DNA of 13,429 nt from the NCBI GenBank assembly GCA_038858525.1, contig JAWCFL010000031.1:1427-14855 (forward strand), read 5' to 3'. The notes beneath the pieces were generated by a model that saw only the letters and a list, made by a program, of their open reading frames with translations, made no database searches and was not told the DNA's origin. The translations under genes and the position numbers were made by a program. This document shows, one piece after another, positions 447 to 12,463 of this stretch; within the stretch, counting starts at the first letter, position 1, and every line of letters starts with the position of its first letter. The DNA is from Candidatus Jordarchaeales archaeon. Its GTDB lineage: Archaea; Asgardarchaeota; Jordiarchaeia; Jordiarchaeales; Freyrarchaeaceae.

Positions 447-486
447 CCTACTTCCCCCAGTCTGATGGAAGAAGTTATTAGCTTGA

Positions 487-509
487 TTTCTCATATATTT
501 TATGAGAAA
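487..509. promoter_or_regulatory. Perfect 9-bp inverted repeat in the divergent rbsK / coiled-coil promoter region (candidate operator)
   Basis: TTTCTCATA (487-495), 5-nt spacer, TATGAGAAA (501-509), inside a 77-bp AT-rich divergent intergenic gap. The repeat is seen directly; its function is inferred. Confidence 0.5.
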
Positions 510-523
510 GGGGGGCTGCTCCA

Positions 524-2503
524 TTGGGTGATGAAGTTAGGGGCTCAAGCGTCTCTTTATTATCTCCTGACTTCGTAGAGAAAAATGTTAAGGCCCTTGA
601 AGCTATTGTTGGAAACGTGAGGTCAGGGCTGGACTCGGCTATTTCTCAGAGTCTTAACGTTTTAAGGCAAAGGATTCTCGACATGAGGGAGGACGTGAGC
701 AGGGAGGTTGTTTCCAGAATAAAGATACACTTTGCCTCTGAGCTCATAAAGAACGTTTTCGTCGAGGCCGTCTCGGGCGTTGTTGATGAAATTGCGCGTA
801 ACACAATGCAAGAAGTTATGTCTGCAACCGAAGCCGAACTAGAAGTCTTCAGGGAGGCGCTGGCGCGCTTCGCTAAAGAGTTCATTGATGTTCTCAGCAG
901 AGAAGAAGCTAGGCTAATAGAGGAGATCTCTAGACTGGACGGGGAGCTCAAGGAAAGGGAACGCTTAGTTAAGGAAAGCTCAGAAGCCCTGAGGCAGAGG
1001 GAGCGCGAGCTGGAAGAGAAGAAACGTGAGCTCGAGTTCGTGAAAACCGAGTTTGAGGAGAAGCGTGCCGAGGTTGAAAAAGCTAAGAAAGAGCTTCAGG
1101 AGCTGATGCGGAGTCTCGAAATGGAGAAGGAGAAATCAGGTTACTTGTCGAGGATGCTAGACGAGTCACGCGAGGAGGTTTCACGCCTAAAGGCAGAGGA
1201 GGAAGCAATGCGGAAACGCCTCCAAAACCTCAACGCAGAAAGAGAAAACCTTGAAAAGCTACTCGAGGAGAGCAGCTCGCAGCTCAAGGAAAGAGAGGCG
1301 CTCCTAAAGGAGCGAGAACAAGCCCTAAAAAGAATCGAGGAAGAACTCGGAAAAGCCAAGCTCGAGTATGAAGCCACTCTAGCTCGACTTAGAGGAGAAC
1401 AAGAGCGTTCAAGCAAGCTGATGAGCGAGCTTGAAGTTGCCAGAAGAGAGATGGAGCGGCTGAAGGCGGAGGAGGCTGAAGCTAAGGCGAGGGTGCAGGA
1501 GGCCACCCGGCAGCTTGCTGAGCGTGAGCGTGCCTTGCAGGAGGCCACCCGGCAGCTTGCTGAGCGTGAGCGTGCCTTGCAGGAGGCCACCCGGCAGCTT
1601 GCTGAGCGTGAGCGTGCCTTGCAGGAGGCCACCCGGCAGCTTGAGGAGAAGAAGAGAGAGCTTAGCGAGAGGGAACAGGAGCTGGATCTCAGGAAGGCTG
1701 AGCTGGAGCAAGTCAGAAAGGAGCTTGACCTAGCACGCGAGGAGTTTGTCGCTCTGCGTGAGCGCCTTGAAAGAGAGCGCATGCGTGTGGCCGAGCTCGA
1801 GGGCCAGCTTGAAGGTGCTCAGAGAGAAATAAGTGTTTTCAACGAGCAAATAAGAACACTTGAGGACATGCTTAGGGAGAGGGACAGTCTGATAGCTGCT
1901 GGGGAGAGCAGGCTCAAGCTCAAGGAGAAAGAGATAGAACGCCTTCGCTCAATAATAGATGAAAAAACAAGGGATTTGGAGGTTAAGAAGGAAGAGCTGG
2001 AGTTCCACAAGAGTCTGGCGGCTGAGCTTGAAGGCGAAGTTGAATCTCTCCGCAAAGAAGTTGATGAGCTTAGGAGGCGCCCCAACGTTGACCCAGCGGT
2101 TATAGCTGAGAAGGAGAGAATGCTAAAACTCAAGGAAGAGGAGCTCCAAGGAGTGCGAAGAAATATTGAGTTACTGGAGAAGAGGATAGTTGAGGTTGAA
2201 GAGGAAATAGACGCTAGGGTTAAGGATCTTGAAACCAGAAACAAGGAGCTTGAGAAAATAAAAGAAGAGCTCGAAAGAGAGAAGAAAAAGAGGGAAGAGC
2301 AGCTGGAACGCTATAAGGGAGCAATGATGCTCGACCCAAGATTCAAAGTCTACTTCATAATAGAATCCATAAAGAAGATCTCATTCCCGAACCTCCAAAA
2401 AGCCACAGGAATAATGCCGGCAGAGCTTAAAGCAACAATCGCTTGGCTTGAACGCGCCGGCATGATTAAAATAGATGGGGAAACAATAATCTTGAACAGG
2501 TGA
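524..2503 (+). CDS. Uncharacterised 659-aa long coiled-coil protein with predicted C-terminal winged-helix domain
   Basis: TTG start 8 nt after a GGGGGG SD-like run. It has an amphipathic helical N-terminal ~120 aa and an E/K/R/L heptad-rich rod (~aa 125-598) with no Pro between aa 16 and 519. The C-terminal ~55 aa (DPRFKVYFII...ISFPNLQKATGIMPAELKATIAWLERAGMIKIDGETII) has the helix-helix-helix-beta-hairpin pattern of a wHTH. There is no Walker A/B motif and no TM segment. Confidence 0.85.
   Translation: MGDEVRGSSVSLLSPDFVEKNVKALEAIVGNVRSGLDSAISQSLNVLRQRILDMREDVSREVVSRIKIHFASELIKNVFVEAVSGVVDEIARNTMQEVMSATEAELEVFREALARFAKEFIDVLSREEARLIEEISRLDGELKERERLVKESSEALRQRERELEEKKRELEFVKTEFEEKRAEVEKAKKELQELMRSLEMEKEKSGYLSRMLDESREEVSRLKAEEEAMRKRLQNLNAERENLEKLLEESSSQLKEREALLKEREQALKRIEEELGKAKLEYEATLARLRGEQERSSKLMSELEVARREMERLKAEEAEAKARVQEATRQLAERERALQEATRQLAERERALQEATRQLAERERALQEATRQLEEKKRELSEREQELDLRKAELEQVRKELDLAREEFVALRERLERERMRVAELEGQLEGAQREISVFNEQIRTLEDMLRERDSLIAAGESRLKLKEKEIERLRSIIDEKTRDLEVKKEELEFHKSLAAELEGEVESLRKEVDELRRRPNVDPAVIAEKERMLKLKEEELQGVRRNIELLEKRIVEVEEEIDARVKDLETRNKELEKIKEELEREKKKREEQLERYKGAMMLDPRFKVYFIIESIKKISFPNLQKATGIMPAELKATIAWLERAGMIKIDGETIILNR
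1494..1643 (+). repeat. Perfect in-frame 42-bp tandem repeat, 3 full copies plus a 24-bp partial
   Basis: The unit TGCAGGAGGCCACCCGGCAGCTTGCTGAGCGTGAGCGTGCCT starts at 1494, 1536 and 1578, with a partial copy at 1620-1643. Copies are 100% identical and encode (QEATRQLAERERAL)n. Confidence 0.98.
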
Positions 2504-2515
2504 CACTAAACCTCG

Positions 2516-2560
2516 CGGAATGTTTTTTCCGTCTCCTCATAATAAACTATACTTTTTGTT
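2516..2560 (+). terminator. Possible terminator between convergent genes (short hairpin plus T tracts)
   Basis: CGGAA-TGTTTT-TTCCG (2516-2531) contains T6 at 2523-2528, and T5 follows at 2553-2557, downstream of the coiled-coil stop. Oligo-T tracts are known archaeal terminator signals. Confidence 0.4.
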
Positions 2561-2582: not shown

Positions 2583-3026
2583 CTATATTATTCTGAAGTC
2601 TTCTTTAACTACGGTCAGTACTACATGGGTATTGGTCCTTTCAACATATGGTATAGAGAGAAGTTGCTTCGTGTATTCGCTCAGCTCCTTCCTGCTTCTA
2701 AACTTGGCTATGGCGATACAGTCAACTTCTCCTGTGACGTCGTAGACTGCGCATGTCGACGGTATCTTCGCCACTTCTTTCTCGACGTCCAGTAGCTTTC
2801 CCTTTGAAACAGTGATCTCTGTTATGGCAGTTATATCGTAGCCAAGCTTTTCGTGGTCTAGTATCACTGTATAGCCCTTTATTATCCCATCTTTCTCCAT
2901 CCTTTTCGTCCTAGCTATAACGGTGGTTGTGGAGACACCGATCAACTTAGCGATCTCGCGTGAAGAGCGCCTAGCATCTTTCAAGTACTCCGAGAGAATT
3001 CGACGGTCAATCTCGTCTAGGCTCAT
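2583..3026 (-). CDS. Lrp/AsnC family transcriptional regulator (147 aa)
   Basis: N-terminal HTH MSLDEIDRRILSEYLKDARRSSREIAKLIGVSTTTVIARTKRMEKDGIIKGYTVILDHEKLG and C-terminal RAM domain with YDVTGEVD. Start moved to ATG 3026 (SD-like GGTGGT upstream); the extra 21 aa in the ORF track lie in AT-rich intergenic DNA. Confidence 0.93.
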   Translation of the reverse strand: MSLDEIDRRILSEYLKDARRSSREIAKLIGVSTTTVIARTKRMEKDGIIKGYTVILDHEKLGYDITAITEITVSKGKLLDVEKEVAKIPSTCAVYDVTGEVDCIAIAKFRSRKELSEYTKQLLSIPYVERTNTHVVLTVVKEDFRII

Positions 3027-3377
3027 AAACCTGACCACCATCACGTTGAAGTCTCCTCTAACAAAATAAATGTTTCTTAAACTAGACATATGTAATACAA
3101 TTGTTCATTTAACAGCGCACTTAAAGATCACCAATCGTATTGTAATGTGACGCTTTGCAGTAAACATGTACCTGTCAAAACTGCGTGGAAATCATCGATC
3201 AAATATACATTAAACATATGTCAAACTGAACGGTTATTATTTTTAAAAATTAAAAAACAAATGTCTAATCTAATGTCGCAAAAAAATACAATTGAATCGA
3301 AAAAATCCAAAAAAGCATATATATGTCTGAATAGAAGAGGACTTGTAAAAATTAGGAATCCGGGAATAGGTGATCAT
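3027..3377. promoter_or_regulatory. AT-rich divergent promoter region between lrp and glnA with repeated short palindromes
   Basis: 351 bp non-coding. ACATATGT occurs at 3086-3093 and 3214-3221, AATACAATTG at 3094-3103 and 3285-3294, CATATATATG at 3316-3325, and SD AGGTGAT at 3368-3374. Confidence 0.5.
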
Positions 3378-4724
3378 TTGAGTAAGAGCGTTTTAGAGGA
3401 AGCTAAGGAAAACGCCCTAAAGGCTGCAAGGAAGAATGATGTTGACCTAGTTCTTCTCGGATTCGTTGACATTCTGGGAACGCCTAAGACCTGCACGGTG
3501 CCAGCTAGAAAGTTCGAGGACGCCCTTAACGAAGGAGTTGGCTTCGACGGCTCCTCTATAGAAGGATTCGTCAGAATATATGAGAGCGACATGCGTCTCA
3601 TACCAGACCCAACATCGTTCCGCATCCTCTCAAGAGTAACCATGGACAAGAAAGTGGCAATGGTTTTCTGTAACGTTTACATGCCTGAAGGAAAACCCTT
3701 CGAGGGAGACCCCAGATACATTCTCAAGAGAAACTTAGAAGAAGCGGGTAAGATGGGCTTCTCCTACTACGTTGGACCAGAACTAGAGTTCTTCCTATTC
3801 AAGGCTGAAAATGGTGTGGTTCCCGAGCCGCAGGATCGAGGAGGATACTTCGACCTGGCTCCACTAGACCAAGCTTTTAACGTCAGAGCCGAGGCAATGC
3901 AGGCTTTACAGGAGATGGGTATAGAGGTAGAAATGGGCCACCACGAAGTATCCCCGGGGCAGCACGAAATAGACTTCAGGTATGGGGACGCCCTAAACAT
4001 AGCGGACGCCGTTATAATATACAAATTTGTCATAAAGTCCGTGGCACGGAAGCACGGGCTTTTCGCGTCATTTATGCCGAAGCCCATTTTCGGCATAAAC
4101 GGGTCAGGCATGCACGTCCACCAAAGCCTCTGGAGCGGTGGGGAAAACGCCTTCTTCAACCCGAACGACAAGTACCACCTGTCAGACGTAGCCTACCACT
4201 TCATAGGGGGACAACTCAAATATATCAAGGACATAATACTCGTACTAGCACCAACCGTAAACTCGTACAAGAGGCTCGTTCCAGGATATGAGGCGCCAGT
4301 CTATATAAGCTGGGCTAGACGCAACAGGTCAGCCCTAATACGCGTCCCCGAGTACTTCATAGGTCGAGGAAAATCAGTGAGGGCTGAGCTGAGGTGCCCC
4401 GACCCGTCATGCAACCCATACCTAGCCTTCTCAGCAATGCTAAAAGCGGGACTTGAAGGAATAAAACAAAAAATAGACCCGCCAGAACCAGTCGAAGAAG
4501 ACATATACCATTTCGACGACGCAAAGCTTAAGGAGCTCTACATAGACACGCTGCCAGGATCCTTGGGAGAAGCAATAGAGTACGCTTCGAAGAGCAAACT
4601 GCTAAGAGAAGCACTCGGAGACCACGCCTACACTAAGTACCTAGAAGCCAAGAAAAACGAATGGGAAGAATTCAGAATGACAGTCACAGAATGGGAATTA
4701 AAAAAGTACCTCCCGATACTATAA
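3378..4724 (+). CDS. glnA: Glutamine synthetase type I (GSI-alpha-like, 448 aa)
   Basis: Motifs FDGSSIEGF, ESDM, GPELEFFLF, HHEVSPGQHEIDF, FMPKPIFGINGSGMHVHQSL, NSYKRLVPGYEAP, NRSALIRVP, ELRCPDPSCNPYLA. Start reassigned to in-frame TTG 3378 behind AGGTGAT, which gives a typical GSI length. Confidence 0.97.
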   Translation: MSKSVLEEAKENALKAARKNDVDLVLLGFVDILGTPKTCTVPARKFEDALNEGVGFDGSSIEGFVRIYESDMRLIPDPTSFRILSRVTMDKKVAMVFCNVYMPEGKPFEGDPRYILKRNLEEAGKMGFSYYVGPELEFFLFKAENGVVPEPQDRGGYFDLAPLDQAFNVRAEAMQALQEMGIEVEMGHHEVSPGQHEIDFRYGDALNIADAVIIYKFVIKSVARKHGLFASFMPKPIFGINGSGMHVHQSLWSGGENAFFNPNDKYHLSDVAYHFIGGQLKYIKDIILVLAPTVNSYKRLVPGYEAPVYISWARRNRSALIRVPEYFIGRGKSVRAELRCPDPSCNPYLAFSAMLKAGLEGIKQKIDPPEPVEEDIYHFDDAKLKELYIDTLPGSLGEAIEYASKSKLLREALGDHAYTKYLEAKKNEWEEFRMTVTEWELKKYLPIL

Positions 4725-4755: not shown

Positions 4756-4941
4756 CTAGTAGTCGCAGTTAAGGCATATTCTTTTCCCGCAGTATTCACA
4801 ACTTGTTGAGTGTTCGTGACAGACTGGTTGCCCGCAGTCCTCGCACAATTCGCTTGTTTTCGCTCCACAGAAGCAGCATTCGTATTCACCTTTCAGCTCT
4901 GCATGTTCTATTTCCAGCACTGTAAGCGCCTTGGCATTCAT
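4756..4941 (-). CDS. Small Cys/His-rich zinc-finger protein (61 aa, B-box-like spacing)
   Basis: ATG 4941 with GGAGG SD 7 nt upstream. Sequence MNAKALTVLEIEHAELKGEYECCFCGAKTSELCEDCGQPVCHEHSTSCEYCGKRICLNCDY has five CxxC/CxxH pairs. Confidence 0.72.
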   Translation of the reverse strand: MNAKALTVLEIEHAELKGEYECCFCGAKTSELCEDCGQPVCHEHSTSCEYCGKRICLNCDY

Positions 4942-5037
4942 TCTTCTTCCTCCGCTTCCTTCACTAGGATTTAGGTATATTTGAGGTTGCCGTTTCAAAA
5001 GAAACTTTTTAGCCTAATTAATGCTTCAAATATAACA

Positions 5038-10378: not shown

Positions 10379-10864
10379 TTACTCCTCTTCCCCTTCTTCA
10401 CCTCGCCTCCCCACAAGCTTGACGTAGTCAGCGTGAACCTTTATCGGGATAGGGTTAGGCGACTCTATAAGCTCTAAAACTACCTCTTCCTTACTGGTGT
10501 CAACTCTTACTATTGTTGCTTTCTCCCCTTTGAATGGCCCCCTAATTATTTCAACGACGTCGCCGGCACTGATCATGCTAACTTGGCTTTTGACGGTTAT
10601 GAAAGGCTCTATGTCATCCAGCTTCACCCTACCGCTAACCTGCCCCCTCACGTGAGGTATGCCAGCAGTCGCCGTTAGAACATCCTTAAGACTGCCCGCC
10701 TCTATAAAAATATAGCCGTTAAGCGTCTCCGGGACCAGAATGGCTTTGATGTCAATGTCCTTCGAACCCTTAACCCTCCGCTCTATGATCTCCGCTACAG
10801 CCTTCTCCTGCCCAATCGTAGTTCTTATAGCAAAAATGTTTCCACCAACAGACAACCCGCCCAT
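10379..10864 (-). CDS. spt5: Transcription elongation factor Spt5 (archaeal NusG)
   Basis: NGN domain (IFAIRTTIGQE...GYIFIEA...IPHVRG) and KOW motif GDVVEIIRGPFKGEKA; located directly downstream of secE. Confidence 0.95.
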   Translation of the reverse strand: MGGLSVGGNIFAIRTTIGQEKAVAEIIERRVKGSKDIDIKAILVPETLNGYIFIEAGSLKDVLTATAGIPHVRGQVSGRVKLDDIEPFITVKSQVSMISAGDVVEIIRGPFKGEKATIVRVDTSKEEVVLELIESPNPIPIKVHADYVKLVGRRGEEGEEE

Positions 10865-10867
10865 CTC

Positions 10868-11158
10868 CTAAGAAGGCGATAAGCCGATCATTGGAAGAAA
10901 ACCATTAACTAACACAAACTTGATTAAGAAAGCCAAGCCGCCTACTATCAAGATCCCAACTATACTTATCCTTACAATCAGCCACATTTCCTCCCTCGTC
11001 GGGTACCTCGCAGCTCTGAATACTCTCACGGTCCTCCTGACCACCCTCGACTGAGAAACCCACTTCACTATCCTTGACTCTGCAGCCTTCCTCACCAAGC
11101 GGTTTCCCCTAACTCTGCCAAGGACAGCTCTCACCTTACCGAGTCGCGTTTTGAACAT
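10868..11158 (-). CDS. secE: Protein translocase subunit SecE / Sec61-gamma
   Basis: RVFRAARYPTREEM hinge followed by a single TM helix (LIVRISIVGILIVGGLAFLIKFVL), in the conserved ftsZ-secE-spt5 order. ATG at 11158; the exact start is uncertain. Confidence 0.85.
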   Translation of the reverse strand: MFKTRLGKVRAVLGRVRGNRLVRKAAESRIVKWVSQSRVVRRTVRVFRAARYPTREEMWLIVRISIVGILIVGGLAFLIKFVLVNGFLPMIGLSPS

Positions 11159-11401
11159 CAAAACCCATCCTCTACATGCTCGACTTCAGAGAAACATTTA
11201 ATCTCCTATTGAAATATTTTTCCCAGAAAACAAAGAAACAACCTTTTATATCCAAAAAAGCGCGAAAACGCGAAAAGAACAATTTAAAATAAACGACCAA
11301 AACTGCCAAGCTTCAAGTCGAGACCGCTTGTTTTTCGTGAAACGCAAATAGAGTTGTCTGTGGAACTTGAGTGGATGATTGACTCTTCAGTGTTCTGCGC
11401 G

Positions 11402-12463
11402 TTAAATTTTTGTCAGTTGAAGTTCTGGTGGCACAACCCATTCCCCTGAAAGTATCTGCTCTACTTGGCGGTAAGTTACTCCACTTATAACTAGTGAAAC
11501 GCGTATCTTGTCCTTTAGGGCTGGATCTATGATGGCGCCCCATATTATCTCTCCATCAGGGGATATTCGTTCAGACATGCTCCTTATTGCCGCCTCTGCC
11601 TCGTGAAGTTTTAAGTCCTGGTCCCCCGTGACGTTTACTAGTGCCCCTGTGGCGCACGAGAGGTCGATGTCGAGGAGTGGGTTGTTCAGCGCATCCTCCA
11701 CGGCTTTCTCCTCTCTCCTCTCGCCGCTCGCCTCTCCGAGAGAGATGAGCGCCGCGCCCCCCTTCTTAATTATAGTTCTTACGTTTGCAAGGTCGACGTT
11801 AACTAGACCCGGCTTGGTTATCATCTCTGATACAGCCTTAACGCCCCTAACAAGTATCTCGTCAGCCAGCCTGAAGGCTTGGATCAAGGAGAGGTTTGGA
11901 GCGACCTCAAGAAGCTTCTCGTTTGGCACAACTATAACTGTATCCGAAACTCTGGAGAGCTTCTTGAGCCCCGAGGATGCACTTCTCCACCTCCTTGCAC
12001 CTTCAGCTATGAAGGGCAGTGTGCACACTGCAACGGTTAATGCTCCCGCTTTCCTCGCTGCTTCAGCTATTACTGGGGATGCACCCGTCCCTGTTCCGCC
12101 ACCCAGGCCGCACGCCACAAACACTAGGTCGCCCGAAATCATCTTCTTTATCTCTTCGATACTCTCTTTCGCCGCAGCCTCACCAACATCCGGGTCGTTT
12201 CCAGCACCAAGCCCCTTCGTCGTCTCCTTCCCTATCAGTAGCTTCTTATCAGCCTTAATATTTAACAAGTCTTGAGCATCAGTATTGACTGCAATGAGCT
12301 CAACGCCCTCTACACCAACGCTGGAAAGTCTATTGATGGCGTTATTTCCAGCACCACCTACCCCAAAAACCTGAATCTTAGGCATGTAACTTAAAATCTC
12401 GTCGAACTCACTCTTTTCATCCTGTTGATTTTCCTGCAAAATCTCTTCTATGATGCTCTCCAT
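11402..12463 (-). CDS. ftsZ: FtsZ, archaeal FtsZ1-type, with non-canonical T7 loop
   Basis: Motifs VFGVGGAGNN, NTDAQ, GLGAG, tubulin signature GLGGGTGTG, PFxxEGxRR, LLDID, IIWGA. The N-terminal extension MESIIEE and the secE-spt5 neighbourhood match FtsZ1. Strong SD GAGAGGAGGG. Confidence 0.97.
   Translation of the reverse strand: MESIIEEILQENQQDEKSEFDEILSYMPKIQVFGVGGAGNNAINRLSSVGVEGVELIAVNTDAQDLLNIKADKKLLIGKETTKGLGAGNDPDVGEAAAKESIEEIKKMISGDLVFVACGLGGGTGTGASPVIAEAARKAGALTVAVCTLPFIAEGARRWRSASSGLKKLSRVSDTVIVVPNEKLLEVAPNLSLIQAFRLADEILVRGVKAVSEMITKPGLVNVDLANVRTIIKKGGAALISLGEASGERREEKAVEDALNNPLLDIDLSCATGALVNVTGDQDLKLHEAEAAIRSMSERISPDGEIIWGAIIDPALKDKIRVSLVISGVTYRQVEQILSGEWVVPPELQLTKI

Follow-up and report, generated by a model that had tools for sequence, protein, structure and literature searches.

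An ATPase-free head-rod-winged-helix protein of Asgard archaea is a candidate nucleoid tether or spacer

What holds DNA in place in Asgard archaea? These organisms are the closest known relatives of eukaryotes. To our knowledge, very little is known of how they organise DNA and cytoplasm beyond actin, tubulin/FtsZ, ESCRT and histones. The locus described here raises the question in a concrete form. It lies in a window of 13,429 nucleotides, by which we mean the whole stretch of DNA analysed, from an Asgard archaeon of the Jordarchaeia. Positions 524 to 2503 of the forward strand encode a protein of 659 amino acids. The original prediction divided this single open reading frame into an N-terminal head, a long coiled-coil rod and a small C-terminal module. 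All three parts are present. We asked what the parts are, how two chains might associate and what such a molecule could do.

The reading frame opens with TTG, closes with TGA and has no internal stops. The TTG start is supported because orthologues have Met at the homologous position and an SD-like AGGGGGG run (509 to 515, forward strand) precedes it by 8 nt. This G-rich run is also kept upstream of orthologues. A putative promoter, with BRE/TATA-like sequence GGAAGAAGTTATTAG, is found ~45 nt upstream of the start codon (467 to 481, forward strand). When the upstream regions of five Jordarchaeal orthologues are aligned, no other block is as well conserved; most of its columns are invariant. 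The same alignment, a weak test for such elements, revealed no palindromic operator that stood out. An oligo-T tract (2523 to 2528, forward strand), 20 nt past the stop codon, resembles archaeal terminators and may serve as one. The gene is conserved in 10 related genomes at 45–87% identity and, as described below, all indels in its rod are multiples of 7. Hence, the gene is real and conserved, and its anatomy is far beyond chance.

A pattern check of the 659 residues identified neither a Walker A nor a Walker B motif. Similarly, there is no transmembrane helix; the top Kyte-Doolittle score for any 19-mer is 1.0. Both findings bear out what had been predicted. The protein has no Cys. No Pfam or NCBIfam model reaches its cut-off with the full-length sequence, no sensor or effector domain was found in these searches, and a literature search found no paper on an Asgard family of this layout. 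The expectation that no named or characterised family would fit therefore stands. Besides Jordarchaeia, Freyarchaeia and Thorarchaeota, further Asgard families also have orthologues. The head (profile A7), rod and terminal winged helix (wH; profile A3) are collinear in the window protein and in its Jordarchaeia, Freyarchaeia and Thorarchaeota orthologues. The layout recurs in four further proteins (L045, L046, L047 and L048). Usually, genomes contain one or two copies. Short paralogues of 210–230 amino acids, with the same C-terminal module, are encoded in the same genome. Widespread in several Asgard classes, the family is yet labelled by public databases only as hypothetical or under the misnomers "chromosome segregation ATPase" and "myosin heavy subunit"; some Thorarchaeota members are called "wHTH transcriptional regulator" by NCBI. 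Pfam tags on Thorarchaeota orthologues (PF24161 and others) did not rise above E = 1 when searched again and we take them to be coiled-coil noise. We conclude that this is an Asgard-restricted and uncharacterised head-rod-wH family, defined here and with no public name.

The rod (899 to 2317, forward strand; aa 126–598) is delineated by heptad phase, occupancy of a and d positions, indels and g-to-e′ pairs. It is rich in charge (25.6% Glu, 24% Lys plus Arg). A single heptad phase extends from aa 126 to ~560, equivalent to ~62 heptads, with hydrophobic residues at 87% of a and 55% of d positions. At 0.1485 nm per residue, the 473 residues would span ~65–70 nm; the earlier estimate of ~70 nm was arithmetically correct. 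Among 11 orthologues, 8 of 8 rod indels are multiples of 7 (7, 7, 7, 14, 14, 28, 105 and 203) and indels at the termini are of 5, 5 and 3 residues. The distance between two anchors, F70 in the head and K608 in the wH, is 538 in five of seven Jordarchaeia and Freyarchaeia sequences, despite 45% identity and compensating indels. Two short forms have distances of 405 and 342; all three values are 6 mod 7. Two Freyarchaeia orthologues are short of 133 and 196 rod residues. The corresponding head-to-wH distance in Thorarchaeota is 323 in 116 of ~124 sequences. Counted in residues, each lineage keeps a constant spacing of head and wH (538 in Jordarchaeia and Freyarchaeia, 323 in Thorarchaeota), which is described here for the first time. 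The patterns are an unusually clear sign that the predicted coiled coil is under selection, with heptad phase and rod length kept through compensating indels.

Charge pairing bears on how the chains are arranged. There are 23 attractive and 5 repulsive g-to-e′(+5) pairs. Shuffled sequences scored −0.6 ± 4.8, and 0 of 2000 shuffles reached the observed value. In an antiparallel arrangement g-g′ contacts would repel, because 45% of g positions are acidic. At d positions, 29% of residues are charged, a proportion tolerated in dimers. The large rod deletions are distributed asymmetrically along the rod. The g-to-e′ pairing supports a parallel, in-register dimer. The proposal that a dimer would place two wH domains at one tip fits this complementarity, the acid-rich g positions and the asymmetric indels in multiples of 7.

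The rod is not uniform. Its sole Pro-containing interruption is the putative kink RRRPNVDP (2072 to 2095, forward strand; aa 517–524), and heptad phase is identical on either side. P520 and P524 are exactly where the original prediction had placed them. However, the statement that the rod is broken only here was approximately right, since a few irregularities contain Gly (for example, G276 and G460). Only Jordarchaeia have the kink prolines; in Freyarchaeia the place is taken by a stretch rich in Gly and Asn. In parts of the rod, such as aa 309–371, strong core residues number only about one per heptad, and there are many i-to-i+3 and i-to-i+4 salt bridges. Hence, some stretches could behave as single α-helices. 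A perfect tandem repeat (42 nt, 3.6 copies, 100% matches in TRF; 1494 to 1643, forward strand) encodes a 14-residue, two-heptad unit, QEATRQLAERERAL, in four tandem copies. Copy number varies among orthologues. One orthologue (L002) has its own perfect array of a different unit, and the array of another (L004) is 75% matched, which indicates that the repeat evolves in concert. The last stretch of the rod (2246 to 2332, forward strand; aa ~575–603) is highly conserved and leads into the wH domain. It is nearly invariant across Jordarchaeia and Freyarchaeia, and in the model its helix runs on into the wH (pLDDT 89–94).

The C-terminal module (2333 to 2500, forward strand; aa 604–659) had been suspected to be a wH domain. 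This view is upheld by an AlphaFold2 model, structure superposition and a profile search of the PDB. The model has a pLDDT of 91.3 and the topology α1-β1-α2-α3-β2-β3 (helices at 41–52, 57–64 and 68–80, strands at 54–56, 84–87 and 90–93, in model numbering). It superposes on solved wH domains, including 7bzh, 4ija, 7el2 and MarR, ArsR and IclR entries, with VIA-align Z scores of 9–10.7 and an rmsd of 1.0–1.6 Å over 55–58 residues. Foldseek agrees, with a TM score of 0.88, relative to the target, for 7bzh. Profile matches in the PDB were exclusively to wHTH domains (IclR-like, MarR, Lrp and ArsR). The wH of the window protein itself is below every Pfam cut-off, the best match being DUF2582 (20.8 bits vs 24.2). 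Other family members do pass: P0019 for MarR (35.8 > 24.6), P0057 for HTH_24 (28.4 > 21.9), and L045 for HTH_IclR (23.8 > 22) and also HTH_24. Across 24 wH modules of the family, the Pfam tally comprised HTH_24, TrmB, MarR, HTH_5 and IclR. Cullin, PCI and ESCRT types were absent from the profile-level matches, both in the PDB search and in this tally. A cullin- or PCI-type wH had been considered, given 27% identity to cullin WHB over 56 residues and a PCI hint in P0038; the tally does not support it.

Basic positions are conserved family-wide on α1, α2 and the recognition helix (K608, K626, 636/637 and 644). The wing tip is acidic in ~60% of members, which would be unusual in a wing that touches the minor groove. 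By its profile, the domain resembles DNA-binding wH domains of transcription factors (HTH_24, TrmB, MarR, ArsR and IclR) and not the docking type of CdvB, kleisins or cullins. Hence, the original idea of a spacer that binds DNA or docks protein divides in two. The DNA-binding half is in keeping with the profile, whereas the profile does not favour docking as in CdvB-CdvA and kleisins (the CdvB wH, 2xvc, reached only E 0.57 in the PDB search). Most likely, the wH binds nucleic acid, probably dsDNA.

The head (560 to 898, forward strand; aa ~13–125) is a conserved helical module with a core motif around FASELIK. It is rich in Val and Ser and has a periodicity of 3.6–3.67 residues, not 3.5. The AlphaFold2 model of the head is a single long helix and is not globular; its pTM is only 0.30, from a shallow alignment. 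It is conserved across Jordarchaeia, Freyarchaeia and Thorarchaeota, and a profile search detected it in 66 of 201 sampled Asgard genomes. A search with aa 1–125 against 5.8 billion proteins, for entries of 362–1154 amino acids, returned zero matches, the protein itself included. The word index evidently misses the family; HMM searches of genomes do detect the head. In the ESM Atlas the best scores (0.75–0.79) are in a range often reached by shuffled sequences. Homology to apolipoproteins A-IV and A-I (E 2e-4) was rejected, as the match sums weak repeats, each stretch having an E value of 2 to 26. The resemblance reflects amphipathic periodicity.

The head also occurs in another setting. In two 461-residue proteins from two other Asgard families (L044 and L049; families f3 and f20) it directly follows a TrmB wHTH, and is collinear with the head described here over >100 positions. 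From these alignments we define a new helical domain, the head, which the family shares with Asgard TrmB-like proteins. Its position after the TrmB wHTH points to oligomerisation and not membrane binding. Hence, the head is a candidate oligomerisation arm, because the same domain follows a wHTH elsewhere.

What might such a protein do? The sequence data support a polar rod of defined length with tips of the DNA-binding type, and so a concrete candidate for a nucleoid tether or spacer. In the reading that we prefer, tentatively and with slightly less than even confidence, the protein is a polar structural rod with paired DNA-binding wH tips and an oligomerising or docking head, acting as nucleoid tether, bridge or spacer. 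Two chains would pair in parallel and in register, through ~62 uninterrupted heptads, to form the two-stranded coiled coil. Therefore, two wH domains of the transcription-factor type would be side by side at the C-terminal tip. Each would contact nucleic acid, probably dsDNA, through its recognition helix and the conserved basic residues. The N-terminal tip would carry two helical heads of ~115 amino acids. These most likely self-associate, for example in head-to-head tetramers that could bridge DNA sites up to ~140 nm apart; alternatively, they may dock to a partner. The protein would thereby hold DNA at a defined distance from other DNA, or from a cellular structure, independently of SMC. 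Here, DNA binding, head oligomerisation, the cellular role and, from sequence statistics, the parallel dimer are all things that we infer. If the structural role is correct, the family would be a new, ATPase-independent class in the archaeal chromosome-organisation toolkit. An extension of this reading, which we think unlikely, is an Asgard-specific, ATPase-free chromatin scaffold. Here, parallel dimers would be joined or polymerised by their heads into bipolar rods or a lattice, with wH tails holding chromosomal DNA at fixed distances from each other or a cell structure. Spacing would be ~70 nm per rod in Jordarchaeia and Freyarchaeia, and ~40–45 nm in Thorarchaeota. Such a scaffold, if real, would be the functional counterpart, in a prokaryote, of lamin-like or kinetochore-like tethers made of coiled coil.

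The main competitor concerns what the wH binds. If it docks protein, in the style of CdvB-CdvA, RPA32C, Stn1 or cullin WHB, the rod would keep two protein assemblies at a distance, as a spacer in a cytoskeleton or scaffold. Structurally, docking wH domains, among them the MCM C-terminus, match as well as DNA-binding ones; Z scores are 9.8 for RPA32C, 9.7 for Stn1 and 9.6 for cullin WHB. The acidic wing tip would suit docking, and the extreme conservation of the rod end beside the wH could mark a composite protein-binding surface. However, sequence profiles match only DNA-binding wHTH families, the basic residues are conserved, and in other proteins the head accompanies a TrmB DNA-binding domain. 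No conserved neighbouring gene suggests a partner. We regard such an adaptor as doubtful, though worth keeping in view. Another explanation accepts DNA binding and makes the protein a sequence-specific transcription regulator, with the coiled coil serving only for dimerisation, as an arm of exceptional length. The NCBI label of some Thorarchaeota members implies as much. In favour, the wH is of the transcription-factor type, the short paralogues could be ordinary regulators and TrmB-family regulators likewise combine wHTH and coiled coil. Yet dimerisation would need far less than 62 heptads kept in frame, a rod length fixed by lineage and a head conserved in its own right. Moreover, the wHTH is C-terminal, unlike that of TrmB, MarR or Lrp, and neither a sensor or effector domain nor, in the weak test noted above, an upstream palindromic operator came to light. 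We judge this explanation improbable; a regulator that is only long-armed would be of modest interest.

An intermediate-filament-like polymer, akin to lamin or crescentin, would form filaments or a lattice, possibly attached to chromatin via the tail. Head-rod-tail layout and lineage-fixed rod length recall intermediate filament proteins, and there are resemblances to crescentin, at noise level (Atlas 0.78; Rod_CreS 20.9 bits in a paralogue). Against this, no intermediate filament or crescentin model comes near threshold (the Rod_CreS cut-off is 100), linkers and stutters of the intermediate filament pattern are missing from the rod, and the loss of 133 or 196 rod residues in Freyarchaeia, together with variable repeat copies, is atypical of lattice rods. 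Such a polymer seems distinctly improbable. The original prediction also offered a DNA-membrane tether, which would be of the RocS/RacA type with the head as an amphipathic membrane anchor. Here, DNA-binding domain, coiled coil and terminal helix do follow the logic of RocS (10.1101/2024.07.25.605149), and the second half of the head is weakly like the amphipathic helices of apolipoproteins. However, the head has a net charge of −6, acidic flanks and only a moderate hydrophobic moment (0.26–0.59). Furthermore, the apolipoprotein A-IV match is the sum of repeats noted above, and the ~115-residue head is conserved in sequence and also found mid-protein, in the TrmB-like proteins. We consider membrane anchoring very improbable and favour the DNA-binding structural rod.

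Comparison with known systems places the family near several, and within none. Like the TrmB family and TrmBL2, it has a wHTH of the same clan, TrmB being among the commonest Pfam matches of family wH domains. TrmB proteins oligomerise through a coiled coil or a helical arm, as is proposed here. In Thermococcales, TrmBL2 acts as a structural chromatin protein. Unlike TrmB proteins, in which N-terminal wHTH, dimerisation helix and effector follow one another, the wHTH here is C-terminal, the rod is ~470 amino acids compared to a TrmB arm of ~40, there is no C-terminal sensor or effector domain and the TrmB cut-off is not reached by the window protein. The head alone is common to this family and the two TrmB-like proteins. 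In those, it occupies the place of the TrmB dimerisation arm. SMC, Rad50 and archaeal SMC-related proteins (ASRP), the usual source of automatic annotation, share the long coiled coil. Matches are below threshold and confined to arm positions for TIGR02168 (64 bits vs a cut-off of 567); ASRP scores 41.7 bits. The window protein differs in having no ATPase head, hinge or CxxC zinc hook; the heptad frame is continuous through mid-length. SMC arms are antiparallel intramolecular coils.

Intermediate filaments such as lamins and crescentin share the layout and the conservation of rod length within a lineage. The lamin tail contacts chromatin. By contrast, the tail here is a wH and not an Ig fold, the rod is without linkers and large in-frame deletions of the rod are tolerated in some species. 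The window protein matched neither Filament nor Rod_CreS in Pfam, and we see no intermediate filament homology. A Snf7/ESCRT-III core, which precedes the wH in CdvB-type proteins, was likewise absent from the Pfam matches. RocS of Streptococcus pneumoniae and RacA of Bacillus subtilis also combine a DNA-binding HTH, a coiled coil and a terminal anchoring or oligomerising element. RocS function requires oligomerisation through its coiled coil (10.1101/2024.07.25.605149). However, both are much shorter, with an N-terminal, MerR-like HTH, so that domain order is reversed, and are anchored through DivIVA or an amphipathic helix at the membrane; the acidic head of the Asgard protein is unlike a membrane anchor. 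No sequence similarity to RocS or RacA was detected. Sso10a of Sulfolobus is an archaeal wHTH protein with a coiled coil, the dimers of which bend, bridge or stiffen DNA (PMC4941522). It differs in being ~95 amino acids long, with an N-terminal wH and an antiparallel coiled coil; the 659-residue protein is predicted to be parallel and has the extra head.

A comparison of the Jordarchaeia, Freyarchaeia and Thorarchaeota loci revealed no operon partner and no informative neighbour shared between lineages. The gene is at the end of, or inside, an aromatic amino-acid (shikimate) cluster in Jordarchaeia and Freyarchaeia, and is convergently transcribed; its context in Thorarchaeota differs. Small neighbours on the 3′ side are unrelated, with a Cys-rich 80-residue protein in Jordarchaeia and Freyarchaeia versus a 115-residue protein in Thorarchaeota. 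The same genome encodes a canonical SMC and two SMC-like ATPases. Hence, we rejected the possibility that the protein is a surrogate or replacement for SMC. In three Jordarchaeaceae genomes, the 220-residue paralogue is encoded ~3 kb downstream of smc-scpAB. The two are 37 kb apart in a complete Freyarchaeia genome and we attribute their proximity to local synteny.

The head–rod–winged-helix (wH) gene reads open for 659 codons from a TTG start (524–2503, + strand). Orthologues from ten related genomes start with Met at the position homologous to the TTG. Upstream lies a BRE/TATA-like block, GGAAGAAGTTATTAG (467–481, + strand), with columns mostly invariant in an alignment of five Jordarchaeal orthologues. 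An SD-like G-rich run (509–515, + strand) is found downstream of this block, and a T6 tract (2523–2528) follows the stop codon. The flanking genes are a divergent pfkB/ribokinase (3–524, − strand) and a convergent Lrp/AsnC (2583–3089, − strand). Given these neighbours and its own signals, we conclude that the gene is real and monocistronic. The source genome is 2.09 Mb in 63 contigs and 92.7% complete; the window is on contig 31. The ATG of the listed pfkB/ribokinase frame overlaps the TTG. The Pfam match of this frame does not start until residue 32, and the matches of some orthologues not until residue 30. Hence, this gene probably starts ~90 nt further in, and the divergent intergenic promoter region would probably then span ~90 nt.

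Heptad phase, AF2 models and wH superpositions confirm the three parts of the original prediction: a head, a heptad rod and a C-terminal wH. As also predicted, a sequence scan of the protein found no Walker A or Walker B motif and no TM-like segment; Cys was absent too. The rod (aa 126–598) is 25.6% Glu, 24% Lys+Arg and 14% Leu. Register assigned window by window keeps a single heptad phase from aa 126 to ~560. Hydrophobic residues occupy 87% of a positions (Leu, Ile, Val) and 55% of d positions; Arg/Lys fill another 29% of d. The expected break at RRRPNVDP (aa 517–524) is the sole proline-containing one, and heptad phase is equal on either side.

The family provides unusually clean evidence of geometric constraint. 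Among 11 orthologues from Jordarchaeia and Freyarchaeia, all rod indels are multiples of seven (7, 7, 7, 14, 14, 28, 105 and 203), compared with terminal indels of 5, 5 and 3. Net rod-length differences (0, 14, 133 and 196) are set by the unambiguous terminal domains. Hence, the pattern is independent of alignment details. The distance between F70 in the head and K608 in the wH is exactly 538 in five of seven such sequences, at ~45% identity, and is kept by compensating indels (+7, +7, −14). Two shortened Freyarchaeia forms have distances of 405 and 342; all three values equal 6 modulo 7. In Thorarchaeota the head–wH anchor distance is 323 in 116 of ~124 sequences.

To assess strand orientation, a homodimer was taken as parallel and in register and its interhelical g-to-e′(+5) pairs were counted; for comparison, non-core positions were shuffled 2000 times. 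There were 23 attractive and 5 repulsive pairs; shuffles gave −0.6 ± 4.8 and none of the 2000 reached the observed value. Acidic residues take 45% of g positions, which would make g–g′ contacts repulsive in an antiparallel pairing. The large rod deletions are asymmetric along the rod, which a parallel homodimer could tolerate but an antiparallel one could not. From sequence rather than structure, we infer a rod that is under selection as a coiled coil and whose strands pair in parallel and in register.

Within the rod, a perfect 42-nt × 3.6 tandem repeat (1494–1643) encodes a two-heptad unit. Copy number varies, with one copy fewer in the orthologue at locus L003, and copies are 100% identical within each of two species. 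The orthologue at L002 has its own perfect array (2358–2504), with a different unit; that at L004 (2368–2504) is diverged and 75% matched. Perfect arrays with different units, together with the L004 array, indicate concerted evolution within lineages or recent homogenisation of the unit.

The AF2 model of the wH (aa 604–659; 24-sequence alignment) has a pLDDT of 91.3, and the rod helix continues straight into α1-β1-α2-α3-β2-β3. VIA-align superposed it on dozens of solved winged helices (Z 9–10.7, rmsd 1.0–1.6 Å, 55–58 residues) and Foldseek concurs. Against the PDB, the sequence profile matched wHTH domains only: IclR-like 5w1e (4e-5), MarR (3e-3), then Lrp and ArsR/HlyU. The Pfam families most often matched by 24 family modules were HTH_24, TrmB, MarR, ArsR and IclR; none of the 24 matched a cullin, PCI or ESCRT-type wH. 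Three distant members exceed Pfam cut-offs for MarR, HTH_24 or IclR. Predominantly basic positions in 87 non-redundant modules are K608 (95%), K626 (74%) and recognition-helix positions 636/637/644 (45–63%). Because of the families matched and these conserved basic positions, nucleic-acid binding via the recognition helix is favoured, though not proven.

The head (aa ~13–125) is a new domain. It is Val/Ser-rich, with a net charge of −6 and a hydrophobic periodicity of 3.6–3.67, versus 3.5. AF2 with an 11-sequence alignment predicted a single continuous helix at residues 15–139 (pLDDT 78.5, pTM 0.30), the remaining four models scoring 51–60; this does not settle the quaternary state. A weak similarity to apolipoprotein was an artefact of adding up repeat matches. 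The head also occurs in a second architecture, in 461-aa proteins of Asgard families f3 (genomes ~1.4 Mb) and f20, encoded at loci L044 (524–1906, + strand) and L049 (1881–3263, − strand). Here, an uncharacterised N-terminal domain (aa 1–135) precedes a TrmB wHTH (aa 137–203; 39 bits, cut-off 25.6; nearest PDB relative TrmBL2). The head follows directly (aa ~206–312), then an uncharacterised C-terminal domain; there is no C-terminal wH. The head match is collinear and gap-free over >100 positions. In TrmB proteins, the position right after the wHTH is a helical dimerisation arm.

Among named genomes, those encoding the closest orthologues (78–86% identity) are Candidatus Jordarchaeia or Jordarchaeum, and the 43–46% set includes Candidatus Freyarchaeota; with the archaeal neighbours described below, this marks the host as an Asgard archaeon. 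A wH-module profile search of 1.84 billion proteins returned 64 cluster representatives at E ≤ 1e-3, nearly all coiled-coil proteins of 200–660 aa with the module at the extreme C-terminus. Recorded names are "hypothetical protein" (Jordarchaeales, Freyarchaeota, Promethearchaeota) and the JGI automatic label "chromosome segregation ATPase". About five such proteins are encoded in the window's genome, among them short paralogues (220 and 228 aa) that combine a coiled coil with a wH. The head profile is single copy in 4/4 Jordarchaeia and 6/6 Freyarchaeia genomes sampled. It is also found in Thorarchaeota, where at least 175 clusters of ~525-aa proteins are labelled hypothetical, "myosin heavy subunit", "SbcCD ATPase subunit" or "wHTH transcriptional regulator". 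A broader head profile was positive, often in two copies, in 66 of 201 sampled Asgard genomes (f1 4/4, f2 6/6, f3 4/4, f13 3/3, Thorarchaeota 39/43) and found nothing in several large families (0/21, 0/19, 0/10). Head and wH occur together in 480-, 489-, 537- and 818-aa proteins from four further lineages. Hence, the suggested phyletic survey identifies an uncharacterised, Asgard-restricted family. Many Thorarchaeota genomes have two head–rod–wH paralogues (~525 and ~487 aa), and Thorarchaeota proteins carry an acidic tail of ~15–20 aa after the wH. A further member, L027 (G000:C5:39120-39305), is a 263-aa frame with one in-frame TAG; pseudogenisation, a sequencing error or stop-codon recoding could account for it.

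As anticipated, no named family fits, known tether families included. Every SMC/Rad50 match was far below cut-off and at arm positions only, and membership tests placed the protein outside IF/crescentin and ESCRT-III. A literature search found no paper describing the family. The protein most resembles the wHTH-plus-coiled-coil architectural and tethering proteins TrmBL2, Sso10a (PMC4941522), RocS (10.1101/2024.07.25.605149) and RacA. However, it belongs to none of these: its domain order is reversed, its rod is ten times longer and its head is new.

The architecture is very probably a polar, parallel two-stranded rod of ~65–70 nm, with two DNA-binding-type wH domains at one tip and, at the other, two heads that would drive higher-order association or docking. 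Our best model, put forward tentatively as a whole, is that the protein may act as a nucleoid tether, bridge or spacer. A protein-docking scaffold is unlikely but deserves consideration; the wing tip of the 87 modules is acidic, and docking-type wH domains fit structurally as well as DNA-binding ones in VIA-align. The sequence profiles, however, match DNA-binding wHTH families, without cullin, PCI or ESCRT. A long-armed sequence-specific regulator is improbable, and an IF-like polymer slightly more so. Least credible is a membrane tether, part of the original prediction; since the head is acidic and its hydrophobic moment no more than moderate, membrane anchoring by it appears unlikely. The earlier interpretation thus holds for the architecture but not for the membrane, and the wH sequence is of DNA-binding rather than docking type.

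Archaeal-type neighbours include Spt5, an archaeal GHMP-type shikimate kinase and FtsZ. In Jordarchaeia and Freyarchaeia, the gene converges with the tail of an aromatic amino-acid cluster (tyrA, chorismate mutase, aroC, aroA, aroK, aroE, then Spt5). In the genus Jordarchaeum, Lrp and GlnA are inserted between them (2583–4724); this divergent Lrp/AsnC–glutamine synthetase pair is not there in other Jordarchaeia and Freyarchaeia genomes. DHQ synthase II, ADH synthase and asd lie upstream in Freyarchaeia, and the Thorarchaeota context is different. No partner gene is conserved across the contexts compared, so the neighbour survey is uninformative for function. The listed GlnA frame (GTG at 3147) begins ~88 residues ahead of the GlnA profile start; since orthologue matches begin at about residue 52, translation probably starts downstream of this GTG. 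At 4756–4998 (− strand), an 80-aa Cys-rich, zinc-ribbon-like ORF has no Pfam match. It is kept directly downstream of tyrA in Jordarchaeia and Freyarchaeia genomes and is unrelated to the 115-aa ORF in the equivalent position beside Thorarchaeota orthologues. FtsZ (Tubulin and FtsZ_C domains; 11402–12463, − strand), an unannotated 97-aa ORF (10868–11161, − strand) and Spt5/NusG (10379–10864, − strand) look like ftsZ-secE-nusG, a common archaeal arrangement, with the 97-aa ORF as putative secE.

Besides a canonical SMC (920 bits), the window's genome encodes two more SMC-like ATPases. In three Jordarchaeaceae genomes, the 220-aa paralogue (G000:C2:75177-75833; L013:4983-5645, minus strand) lies ~3 kb downstream of canonical smc with the same orientation; 37 kb separate the pair in a complete Freyarchaeia genome. 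Directly downstream of smc are 245- and 178-aa ORFs, presumed scpA/scpB.
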